A stretch of DNA of 64,000 nt from Paraliomyxa miuraensis. Lineage in GTDB: Bacteria > Myxococcota_A > Polyangia > Nannocystales > Nannocystaceae. The stretch is from NCBI RefSeq assembly GCF_026337845.1, contig NZ_JAOVZF010000146.1, forward strand, positions 121,015-185,014, written 5' to 3'. How positions within the stretch are numbered: the first letter of the stretch is position 1; each line of letters starts with the position of its first letter. The notes below the pieces were generated by a model, which made no database searches, was not told the origin of the DNA, and saw nothing but the letters and a program-made list of their open reading frames with translations. Shown in pieces: positions 18,489 through 30,769 of this stretch. A program made the position numbers and the translations under genes.

Positions 18489-18589
18489 GGTCGCTCGGAT
18501 CCGCGTGCGTGCGAAAGTGACACTGTCGCCTCGAGGCCGCGACACGCGGCCGGCCCTTGCCAGGAGCGTGCGAATGCGATCCGTCGTGT

Positions 18590-18650
18590 CACGATATCGA
18601 GCCGACTTCGATCGCATGTGGTAATTTCGAGCCGATTGATATCGAGCCAT
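18590..18650. promoter_or_regulatory. direct repeats (cgatatcgagcc x2, tcgagcc x3) in the AT-richer leader upstream of the precursor-peptide gene
   Basis: The sequence shows cgatatcgagccg at ~18593 and gatatcgagcca at ~18638, 45 bp apart, with a third tcgagcc at ~18627. All lie within the ~270-bp intergenic region before ATG 18761. Confidence 0.3.
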
Positions 18651-18760
18651 CGATCGATGTAACGGGCGGCGGTGAATGTGTTGTTGTGGGATGGAGCGGC
18701 GATGATATAGTTCGGAGCCTCGTGCTGGTGGAATGCGCCAGCGTGACTGGGAGAGTAGAT

Positions 18761-19042
18761 ATGAGTGATGAATCGAAGAAGCTGAGGAAGCTCGCCACGG
18801 GGAGCGAGAAGTTGACCAAGATCGACCTCGAGCACCTCGAGAAGGTGACGGGCGGCGTGGCCTACGATCCGTGCAATGCGGCGTACGACGCCTGCAACGC
18901 GGCGTACGACGCCTGCAATGCGGCGTACAATCCGTGCAACGCGGCGTACGACGCCTGCAACGCGGCATACGACGCCTGCAATGCGGCGTATGACGCCTGC
19001 AATGCGGCGTACGACGCCTGCAATGCGGCCTATCGCCCCTAG
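18761..19042 (+). CDS. repeat-core precursor peptide (93 aa): double-glycine leader plus eight tandem AYD(A/P)CNA heptads
   Basis: ATG 18761 preceded by GGGAGAG. Leader is MSDESKKLRKLATGSEKLTKIDLEHLEKVTGG (K/E-rich, ends GG). Core is VAYDPCNA-(AYDACNA)x2-AYNPCNA-(AYDACNA)x4-AYRP. Local GC is markedly lower than the flanks. In frame within track ORF 18557..19042, but the upstream 68 codons have no SD and are rejected. Confidence 0.6.
   Translation: MSDESKKLRKLATGSEKLTKIDLEHLEKVTGGVAYDPCNAAYDACNAAYDACNAAYNPCNAAYDACNAAYDACNAAYDACNAAYDACNAAYRP
18860..19027 (+). repeat. 8 x 21-bp tandem repeat (gcgtacgacgcctgcaaygcg) encoding the heptad core
   Basis: Eight contiguous 21-nt units. They differ almost only at synonymous third positions (caat/caac, gcg/gca, tac/tat) plus two D->N/P substitutions. 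No spacers are present. Confidence 0.8.
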
Positions 19043-29705: not shown

Positions 29706-29719
29706 TCGGCGGATCCGCC

Positions 29720-30577
29720 TCAGCGCGGCGTGGCCACGAGCCCGAGCATCAGCGGCATCGAGGGCACGCCCTGCGGCATGCCGAAGCGTCGCCCGGGCAG
29801 GGGCTGCATGCCCTCGAAGATCAAGCAGCCGTTGGCATGGGGGTACTCGCGCAGCTGCTCGACGAACAGGCCGGCGTCGGCGATGGCCTGGACCGTCTGC
29901 GCCACGGTGTGCTGGTAGCAGATCGCCTTCTCGGGGTTCGCGAACTCCCGTGTGCCCTCGGCCCGGCCCATGGGCGAGAGTCCCTCCTGGGAGCGGCCCA
30001 CGTAGTCGCTCACGCCGCCTTCCTCGATGGGTCCGTCGATGAAGTAGTGCTCGATGACCTTGCCCTCGCGGTCGAAGCTCCACGCCAGCGGATGGAACTC
30101 GAGCAGCACCAGGCGGCCGCCGGGGGCGAGCACCGAGGCCACCCCGCGGGCCCAGCGGGGGAGATCCTCGAGCCAGGTGATGGTGCCGTACGAGGAGAAC
30201 ACGCGATCGAAGCGCTCACCGCGGGCCGCCGCGTCTTCGAGCCAGGGCAGCACGTCGCTGCGGTGGAACGTGGCGGGCAGGCTCGAGTCGGCCGACAGCG
30301 TGCGGGCGAAATCGATCGCCGCGTCGGAGATGTCCACGCCCGTGACCTCGGCTCCGAGCGCCGCGAGGCTGAGGCTGTCCTGGCCGCAATTGCACTGGAG
30401 GTGCAGCAGGCGCGTGCCCGCGACGTCGCCGAGCAGCTCGAGCTCCTCGGGAAACAGCGTGGTGCCGCCGCTGCGCAGGAAGCCGGCCTGATCGTGCTTG
30501 TGGCTGTTGTGGGCCGGCGTGACGGCATTCCAGGAGCGGCGGTTCTGCTCGTGGACGGGGTTGGTGTCGTCGGTCAT
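29720..30577 (-). CDS. class I SAM-dependent methyltransferase (285 aa)
   Basis: Start MTDDTNPV inside track ORF 29720..30685(-). Motif I LLHLQCNCGQDS and motif II VTGVDISDAAI, with acidic post-II. Convergent with the ABC genes. Confidence 0.7.
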   Translation of the reverse strand: MTDDTNPVHEQNRRSWNAVTPAHNSHKHDQAGFLRSGGTTLFPEELELLGDVAGTRLLHLQCNCGQDSLSLAALGAEVTGVDISDAAIDFARTLSADSSLPATFHRSDVLPWLEDAAARGERFDRVFSSYGTITWLEDLPRWARGVASVLAPGGRLVLLEFHPLAWSFDREGKVIEHYFIDGPIEEGGVSDYVGRSQEGLSPMGRAEGTREFANPEKAICYQHTVAQTVQAIADAGLFVEQLREYPHANGCLIFEGMQPLPGRRFGMPQGVPSMPLMLGLVATPR

Positions 30578-30769
30578 GGTGCTCTTGCTTCGCTTCGGGG
30601 GGTCCAGCTTGGGGCCGCCTCCGACCATCTCGCAATCGCCCTCGTCGGTCCACGGAACGCCGGCCCCCCGGGGCCCACGCACCAAAGCGCCGCAACGCTG
30701 GATCCGCGGCCCCCCCAGGCCCTACCCTGATCCCCCGGAAACCCCCGGGGACCGAGGAGCGAACCCCCC

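Follow-up and report, generated by a model that had tools for sequence, protein, structure and literature searches.

A tandem-repeat precursor peptide and its ferritin-like diiron partner mark a candidate undescribed class of modified ribosomal peptides in Paraliomyxa miuraensis and other bacteria

The window analysed here is a stretch of 64,000 nucleotides from the marine myxobacterium Paraliomyxa miuraensis (Nannocystaceae; contig NZ_JAOVZF010000146.1, positions 121,015 to 185,014 of the forward strand). It carries a gene for a short peptide with a repetitive core, directly followed by genes for a ferritin-like diiron protein, an acetyltransferase and a methyltransferase, and further on by an export cassette. 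We judge, with moderate confidence, that this locus makes an exported, enzyme-modified ribosomal peptide (RiPP, a peptide made on the ribosome and altered after translation) of an undescribed class. On a wider proposal our judgement is evenly divided. Here, the diiron protein would be class-defining for an unrecognised RiPP class present in at least eight phyla, with the repeat unit as its substrate and an unprecedented modification on or between an asparagine and an aromatic residue as its chemistry. It would then be the first four-helix-bundle diiron oxygenase shown to act on ribosomal peptides, and the window would hold a variant that has acquired a double-glycine (GG) leader and an exporter. 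The features on which the argument is built are as follows, all on the plus strand.

18761..19042 (+): precursor peptide gene, 93 aa plus stop, from the translation of the open reading frame (ORF).
18761..18856 (+): leader peptide of the double-glycine type, 32 aa, with the predicted cut site after G32.
18860..19027 (+): eight 21-bp / 7-aa repeats AY(D/N)(A/P)CNA, detected by Tandem Repeats Finder and matching the family unit.
19106..19846 (+): ferritin-like diiron-carboxylate protein, proposed class-defining peptide oxidase/oxygenase.
19850..20272 (+): GNAT acetyltransferase of a cluster-specific family (Acetyltransf_1, 67.6 bits).
20269..21024 (+): class-I S-adenosylmethionine (SAM) methyltransferase (Methyltransf_11, 70.6 bits).
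23367..24755 (+): HlyD-type periplasmic adaptor (TIGR03794, 335.1 bits against a cut-off of 156.2).
24763..26994 (+): ABC transporter (ABC1) with C39 domain, permease and ATPase (TIGR03796, 980.4 bits against 853.3; Peptidase_C39, 126.5 bits).
26991..29705 (+): second ABC permease/ATPase (ABC2; TIGR03797, 862.1 bits against 709.4, residues 220-903).

Translation of the first ORF bore out the initial annotation, which had described a 93-aa precursor with a 32-aa leader ending in LEKVTGG and a 61-aa core containing eight cysteines and nine tyrosines. The genes around it also proved to be as described there, and those of its proposed checks that were run all spoke for it. The leader, MSDESKKLRKLATGSEKLTKIDLEHLEKVTGG, is followed by the core VAYDPCNA AYDACNA AYDACNA AYNPCNA AYDACNA AYDACNA AYDACNA AYDACNA AYRP. 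Eight heptads are indeed present, but the unit originally given as AYD(A/P)CNA had to be widened to AY(D/N)(A/P)CNA because the fourth reads AYNPCNA. The core (18857..19039) also contains nine asparagines; its average mass is 6325.7 Da and its pI 4.05. Tandem Repeats Finder reported a period of 21 bp, 7.5 copies and 88% matches at 18872..19029. Compared with their consensus, the eight DNA units show 7 nt changes that fall in synonymous codons and 6 in non-synonymous ones, all of the latter at heptad positions 3-4. A Shine-Dalgarno-like GGGAGAG lies 5 nt upstream of the ATG; a scan for consensus promoters and terminators around the gene returned nothing informative. This is the sole ORF of its kind within the 64-kb window, and it is called as a gene in a Logan assembly. 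A protein-collection search with the precursor returned only two homologues. Since the window's own peptide was not among them while flanking P. miuraensis proteins are present in the same collection under NCBI names, the deposited genome probably lacks an annotation for this gene. The paper on the P. miuraensis genome gives lists of antiSMASH and RiPPMiner regions but does not describe the peptide.

The leader is rich in Lys and Glu and reads ...KLTKIDLEHLEKVTGG, which directly places L-15, I-12, L-7, V-4, G-2 and G-1. Substrate leaders of C39 peptidase-containing ABC transporters (PCATs) have a consensus of hydrophobic residues at -4, -7, -12 and -15 before GG, GA or GS, and the leader of 18761..19042 has this double-glycine cargo pattern with a putative cleavage site.

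The same locus was recovered from three other Nannocystaceae/Myxococcota assemblies (L001, L005 and L002/L006), where homologues of the peptide lie beside diiron, methyltransferase and exporter genes; their absence would have told against the initial annotation. Their peptides share the leader and contain seven (L001), eight (L005, with AYEPCNA) or four (L002/L006) heptads, and A-Y-x-x-C-N-A is unchanged in the 27 heptads from the four genomes. L001 keeps the order peptide-diiron-GNAT-methyltransferase-(PilT x2)-HlyD-ABC1-ABC2 at 62-88% identity, PilT denoting a pair of ATPase genes taken up below. The order in L002/L006 is that of L001 with the GNAT gene missing; in L005 it is that of the window lacking the PilT genes, the contig ending within ABC1. 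All three of these Nannocystaceae genomes thus keep the peptide architecture, and dozens of further genomes have a related one, which excludes chance.

A genome scan for the diiron family identified 43 loci. In 39 of them, a small ORF whose C-terminus carries one to eight copies of a common unit lies directly upstream of the diiron gene, so that the co-occurrence check proposed in the initial annotation for homologues of 19106..19846 came out positive. The pair occurs in at least eight phyla, the 43 loci coming from Myxococcota; Cyanobacteriota (Moorena bouillonii among them); Acidobacteriota; Methylomirabilota/Rokubacteria; alpha-, beta- and gamma-Proteobacteria (Rhizobium, Duganella, Chromobacterium, Dyella, Pseudomonas); Vulcanimicrobiota/Elarobacter; Eisenbacteria; and Actinomycetota (Kitasatospora, Actinokineospora). 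Alignment of 127 units from 41 peptides gave the unit [FY]-x-[AP]-x-N-[AS]-[AP]-[FY]. The Asn and the aromatic residue at +3 occur in all 127, and the aromatic residue at -4 in 121; Cys precedes the Asn (-1) in 93, with Gln, Val, Leu, Trp, Arg or Thr as the alternatives. The heptad periodicity results from the aromatic residue that consecutive units have in common. Judged by its motif, the AYDACNA array is the Nannocystaceae version of a commoner F[VIT]ACN[AS][AP]F array. Leaders from outside the Nannocystaceae have another motif in common, [IL]-x-F-[DE]-L ... V-R-L-S-G .... Furthermore, enzyme clades track peptide type, with 43-51% identity where the repeats are F.ACN..F, 39-41% where a single ..NAPF is present and 32-35% for.WN..F. 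Across the phyla surveyed, the diiron protein is by gene context an obligate genomic partner of such peptides.

The surroundings of the pair fall into three sub-types. Sub-type A comprises multi-repeat Cys cores whose loci have a class-I methyltransferase immediately downstream and, in many cases, the specific GNAT too. It takes a compact GNAT-peptide-diiron-methyltransferase form in Sorangium So ce26 (two copies) and in an island of Burkholderia pseudomallei. Sub-type B has a single C-terminal ...NAPF unit and then an IucA/IucC-like protein, which in P0154 is apparently fused to the diiron domain. In sub-type C, ..WN..F peptides occur with Asn-synthase-like, PhyH-type and large membrane proteins. 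The two-gene pair stands alone in L016, L019 and L042, and is joined by a subtilase S8 in L021 and a JmjC oxygenase in L035. The subtilase S8, Asn-synthase-like, PhyH, JmjC and IucA/IucC-like neighbours are classic peptide-maturation genes and favour the reading of the locus as a RiPP system.

Several of these loci have features of their own. Those of sub-type B (L029-L032, L037, L040, L046, L047) encode an IucA/IucC-like (NIS-synthetase-type) protein with an FhuF-like C-terminus. Those with ..WN[AC]x[FY] peptides (L028, L038, L039, L041, L044, L045) include some with a conserved WNC[PR][FY]x[ED]C, and the L028 group also encodes a polytopic membrane protein of ~500 aa with no Pfam match. At the B. 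pseudomallei locus (L049; UUWV01000048.1, 3574..10706) the cassette lies in an apparent mobile island with phage-type integrase, SIR2, lambda Ea47-like and H-NS-like proteins, and no exporter lies near it. Sorangium cellulosum So ce26 (CP012673.1, ~10.81-10.84 Mb; L003/L004, the same as L007/L043) carries the cassette twice in near-identical form. The copies are separated by ~13 kb, and IS66 and DDE transposases, an integrase and a fragment of a group-II-intron maturase flank them. One of its GNAT copies is truncated, and a tyrosinase gene lies ~1 kb upstream of the intact one.

The diiron protein comprises 246 aa and is 100% identical to a hypothetical protein of P. miuraensis. Its only Pfam/NCBIfam match is a weak one to FA_desaturase_2 (acyl-ACP-desaturase), and some homologues have weak matches to AurF (PF11583). 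Seventy-five homologues share, without exception, E67, D96-E97-x-x-H100, Q153-x-N155-x-G-E158 and D194-E195-x-x-H198, the six-ligand pattern of diiron-carboxylate proteins. With two E-x-x-H motifs, two further carboxylate ligands and a four-helix bundle, 19106..19846 belongs, by sequence and fold, to the ferritin-like diiron superfamily; its metal content and activity are predicted. The fold relatives, with their scores, were CADD (13.0), HrmI (12.7), UndA (12.6), a VlmB homologue (12.5) and SznF (12.1), together with PaaC/PaaA and the aldehyde-deformylating oxygenases (ADO). Identity was at most 16% to every solved structure compared (11% for CADD, where the likeness is one of fold). Foldseek returned no match at E<0.001, and a sequence profile search of the PDB gave E>=0.01 throughout, with nothing significant. 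Word-indexed homologues of the protein number 232. When 1.84 billion representatives were searched exhaustively with a profile, no more than 337 clusters reached E<=1e-3, which makes the family rare. Four distant matches were found in a plasmid collection, all 'hypothetical' or unannotated. In P0238, P0257 and P0259 the diiron domain is fused to an N-terminal domain of ~240 aa with an HxD...H pattern; the extra parts of these fusions and of P0154 received no Pfam assignment. The architecture of the first three recalls the two-domain SznF.

The GNAT gene begins after a gap of 3 nt behind the diiron gene and overlaps the methyltransferase gene by 4 nt. GNAT homologues with 34-88% identity adjoin the peptide/diiron pair in ten loci, including those of Sorangium, Burkholderia pseudomallei, Pseudoduganella, Moorena and other cyanobacteria. 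A methyltransferase homologue immediately follows the diiron gene in 17 of the 20 loci in which Cys precedes the Asn and in none of the 18 in which it does not (Fisher 4e-8, a statistic that ignores phylogeny). Both genes are translationally coupled to the diiron gene and recur with it. The nearest solved relatives of the methyltransferase (3bkw and LahSB 6uak, E about 1e-8) match its Rossmann core only, and neither they nor those of the GNAT give any hint of the type of substrate.

The initial annotation had assigned the HlyD and ABC genes to the NHLP-type export trio, and this proved correct, all three proteins scoring above the curated NCBI cut-offs. The C39 motifs of the first ABC protein are complete: Q20, C26 (ESTECGAAC), H99 (NHFVVV) and D115. 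The N-terminal 219 residues of the second have no Pfam match. Like the diiron, GNAT and methyltransferase genes, the three export genes lie a few bases apart or overlap by 4 nt, as the second ABC gene does with the first. The HlyD start is uncertain (ATG 23367, or 23481 in the Logan assembly); orthologues in L001, L005 and L006 are 75-82% identical. The VTGG leader, conserved in all four Nannocystaceae loci, is found there together with the export trio, and neither occurs in the other loci of the family. By this distribution, the export cassette is a Nannocystaceae-specific addition outside the family core. The Cys-containing heptad and the exporter are both real in the window; across the family, the defining pair is the peptide with its diiron enzyme, and the invariant residues are the Asn and its +3 aromatic partner.

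On genomic grounds the locus conforms to the general definition of a RiPP, a leader-core precursor being linked to conserved modifying enzymes in 39 of 43 loci. The combination of leader-core precursor, tailoring enzymes and PCAT export follows RiPP logic and is not a categorically new kind of system. The initial annotation did not recognise the core from any characterised RiPP class, and neither curated families (Pfam, NCBIfam) nor searchable papers cover the peptide or the enzyme. When the precursor and six representative family peptides were scanned against Pfam and NCBIfam, no credible family came up; for the 93-aa peptide there was no match at E<=0.01, the NHLP/Nif11 precursor models TIGR03793 and TIGR03798 included. 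Models in Pfam, NCBIfam and PADLOC likewise cover neither the peptide nor the diiron enzyme, and a PADLOC scan of the cassette proteins gave generic methyltransferase-domain matches only, leaving a known defence system unsupported. Among ten proteins scanned there was no LanB/LanC/LanM/LanKC, radical SAM-SPASM or YcaO enzyme, and so none of the Cys-based RiPP classes (lanthi-, sacti-, ranthi- and thiopeptides) was indicated. The literature searched, most subscription journals lying outside it, contained the core motif in no relevant context and no ferritin-like or diiron enzyme of this fold tied to RiPPs.

Several known systems resemble the locus in part. The NHLP/Nif11-type double-glycine RiPP export cassette (TIGR03794 HlyD, TIGR03796 C39-ABC and TIGR03797 ABC) was reportedly described by Haft et al. 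in 2010. The window's trio is like it in scoring above equivalog cut-offs, in its intact C39 motifs and in its GG-leader cargo. However, the precursor has no nitrile-hydratase-like or Nif11 leader domain (0 NCBIfam matches), its leader is only 32 aa long, and the known tailoring enzymes of those systems (cyclodehydratases, lanthionine synthetases, radical SAM enzymes) differ from those found here.

Thiovarsolins are made from a repeating precursor, VarA, with a heme-oxygenase-like protein, VarO, and the products are small and N-acetylated (PMC6511847). The parallels are a repeat-core precursor, a helical O2-type oxidase outside the usual RiPP families and acetylation. Conversely, thiovarsolins involve YcaO/TfuA thioamidation, actinomycete biosynthetic gene clusters and an MFS exporter, and neither YcaO nor TfuA was found among the window proteins scanned (Pfam/NCBIfam). 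VarO and the window protein were compared by description only. The sole link to ribosomal peptides cited in a review of heme-oxygenase-like dimetal enzymes from March 2026 is the genetics of VarO.

RiPPs made by MNIO (DUF692) enzymes include methanobactins, bufferins and chryseobasins (PMC9060507, PMC10214503, PMC12257519). There too a multi-iron, O2-dependent enzyme is class-defining for short, often repeated Cys motifs in a ribosomal peptide. MNIO enzymes, however, are DUF692 proteins with a TIM-barrel fold and are usually accompanied by an MbnC-like partner, whereas the window protein is a four-helix bundle without a DUF692 match; moreover, the invariant of its family is Asn plus an aromatic residue and not Cys. 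No protein encoded within 16.9-30.7 kb matched a DUF692/MbnB-type enzyme in Pfam or NCBIfam.

The helical-bundle fold and the six-ligand carboxylate/His site are those of MiaE, AurF/CmlI, PaaAC, ADO, CADD, UndA, SznF and HrmI, none of which, to our knowledge, acts on a ribosomal peptide. Repeat motifs are cross-linked by radical SAM enzymes in the triceptides (aromatic-X-X units) and in freyrasin, where PapB acts on six CX3D units. In those systems, as in the window, a short unit with an aromatic or Cys residue and an Asn/Asp-type residue is repeated within one core, its copies presumably modified alike. Theirs is anaerobic radical chemistry, whereas that of the window would depend on O2; Pfam and NCBIfam scans detected no radical SAM/SPASM gene in 16.9-30.7 kb.

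Under the RiPP reading, the diiron enzyme would use O2 to oxidise every repeat at or near the invariant Asn and its +3 aromatic partner. Together with the flanking aromatic residues, the small ones at -2, +1 and +2 have the appearance of a compact recognition element. Ferritin-like diiron enzymes catalyse C-H and aromatic hydroxylation, desaturation and N-oxygenation. From this known chemistry hydroxylation is the most conservative guess and the one we prefer, possibly leading to a side-chain cross-link. The methyltransferase, present only where Cys precedes Asn, would have as its target the Cys thiol or a product that depends on Cys. The GNAT may acetylate a peptide amine, most simply a newly exposed N-terminus, and a GT4-winged-helix protein encoded upstream may glycosylate the peptide. 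Finally, the C39 domain would cut after G32, and the two ABC proteins and the HlyD adaptor would export an acidic 61-mer of ~6.3 kDa.

Several observations weigh against this reading. Modification of the core is a prediction from sequence, from which the chemistry cannot be derived. Pfam/NCBIfam scans of the diiron protein, methyltransferase and GNAT detected no RiPP recognition element. In the window, a minus-strand PilT-like gene pair splits the tailoring from the export genes, which consequently are not one transcript. The Nannocystaceae leader is unlike the family-wide one, and substrate recognition may differ here. The methyltransferase-Cys association carries no correction for phylogeny. 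A dedicated exporter or protease is missing from most of the family, and several cassettes sit in apparent mobile islands (B. pseudomallei, Sorangium); both facts leave room for an intracellular role.

The main rival, which we regard as unlikely, holds that the precursor is a multi-core one, its repeats being cut into about eight small (hepta)peptides that are each oxidised, N-acetylated and methylated, in parallel with the thiovarsolins (PMC6511847). A varying copy number (4, 7, 8 and 8 in the Nannocystaceae; 1-5 elsewhere) is what independent products would lead one to expect, and a substrate for the GNAT would arise only once a new N-terminus has been made. An aromatic residue closes the ..NAPF units, which is generally known as a typical P1 site for chymotrypsin/subtilisin-type proteases, and a subtilase follows the pair in L021. 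Yet the only protease encoded in the window and its orthologous loci is the C39 domain, which is GG-specific. The units also abut without a spacer or recognisable cleavage signal, and PCAT exporters, as is generally understood, move the entire cargo that follows the GG site.

CADD makes p-aminobenzoate from protein Tyr and Lys, and pearlin and 3-thiaglutamate are scaffold-type analogues. By extension, the peptide could serve as a sacrificial scaffold on which the diiron enzyme turns the Asn/aromatic pair into a small molecule or cofactor, the family role being intracellular and the exporter a secondary acquisition. We consider this improbable: likeness to CADD is at the level of fold, Asn as a nitrogen donor is without precedent, and the co-variation of a canonical GG leader and a dedicated PCAT system with the peptide indicates that the peptide is the cargo.

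Still less probable is an unmodified, class-II-like double-glycine bacteriocin with the diiron, GNAT and methyltransferase genes as unrelated neighbours (for example, immunity or housekeeping genes). A GG leader and a C39 ABC exporter would generally suffice for such a product, and the case for modification has thus far come from sequence. Against it, peptide and diiron genes adjoin across at least eight phyla, also in loci free of an exporter; enzyme clades co-vary with core motifs, the methyltransferase tracking Cys; and the genes overlap or abut.

That the ORF is not a real gene, or its array a recent product of replication slippage (a condition under which the initial annotation would have fallen), might be argued from the differing copy number among relatives and the absence of the ORF from the protein-collection results, but this is already refuted, as far as comparison allows, by the synonymous differences between units, amino-acid changes at only two of seven positions, a leader, frame and stop kept in four genomes, a motif found in about 40 and the Shine-Dalgarno-like site.

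New RiPP classes mostly come to light through a new class-defining enzyme, and the present candidate has a built-in substrate rule, an Asn plus aromatic motif in one to eight copies, with about 40 natural enzyme-substrate pairs on hand for testing. Unusual oxidative chemistry is being found at a fast pace in ferritin-like and HDO-type diiron enzymes, which are almost unexplored on peptides. Members of the family occur in prolific natural-product producers (Sorangium, Moorena, Kitasatospora, Nannocystaceae) as well as in the B. pseudomallei mobile island, which leaves room for new chemistry and a new biological role, be it antimicrobial, metal-binding or signalling. The repeat architecture is also a potential scaffold for placing the same modification many times on one peptide.

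Four further genes adjoin or interrupt the system, of which the glycosyltransferase and the PilT-like pair were not in the initial annotation.

16902..18488 (+): candidate tailoring enzyme, a glycosyltransferase (GT4 by Pfam/NCBIfam) extended at its C-terminus by a winged helix.
21051..22115 (-): divergent PilT-like ATPase, well below the PilT/PilU cut-off.
22103..23365 (-): divergent PilT-like ATPase, likewise far under that cut-off, whose N-terminus has an MshEN-type c-di-GMP-binding motif.
29720..30685 (-): second methyltransferase at the far end (methyltransferase match).

The GT4 gene is directly upstream of the peptide gene in all four Nannocystaceae loci. Its position is constant despite the differing genes further upstream, and it therefore probably belongs to the peptide system. 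The family consists of ~550-aa proteins (319 matches). The C-terminal extension of ~190 aa has no Pfam match and contains a winged helix in an AF2 model (pLDDT 86.6). Two of three sampled distant members lie in RiPP-like contexts, which suggests that the GT4 plus winged-helix proteins are a family of uncharacterised peptide glycosyltransferases. One is in Corallococcus silvisoli (L051, 1724..9717), with two JmjC genes, TfuA, YcaO, the GT4 and an MvdD-type ATP-grasp; the other is in Streptomyces (L053, 4914..9483), with a small ORF, an Asn-synthase-like gene, the GT4 and a methyltransferase.

The PilT-like pair sits between the methyltransferase and HlyD genes in the window, L001 and L006. It was rejected as a part of the system and is regarded as an insertion, since in L005 the pair is absent and the HlyD gene directly follows the methyltransferase gene. 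The convergent methyltransferase at the far end, which the initial annotation had counted as part of the cluster, was also rejected, because the related loci contain no homologue of it; this negative evidence is weak, since the L001 and L006 flanks stop near the corresponding position. Just downstream of the locus, 30770..33232 (+) encodes an 820-aa protein with MVP_shoulder (94 bits), Vault_3 and Vault repeat matches, a bacterial homologue of the eukaryotic vault shell protein.

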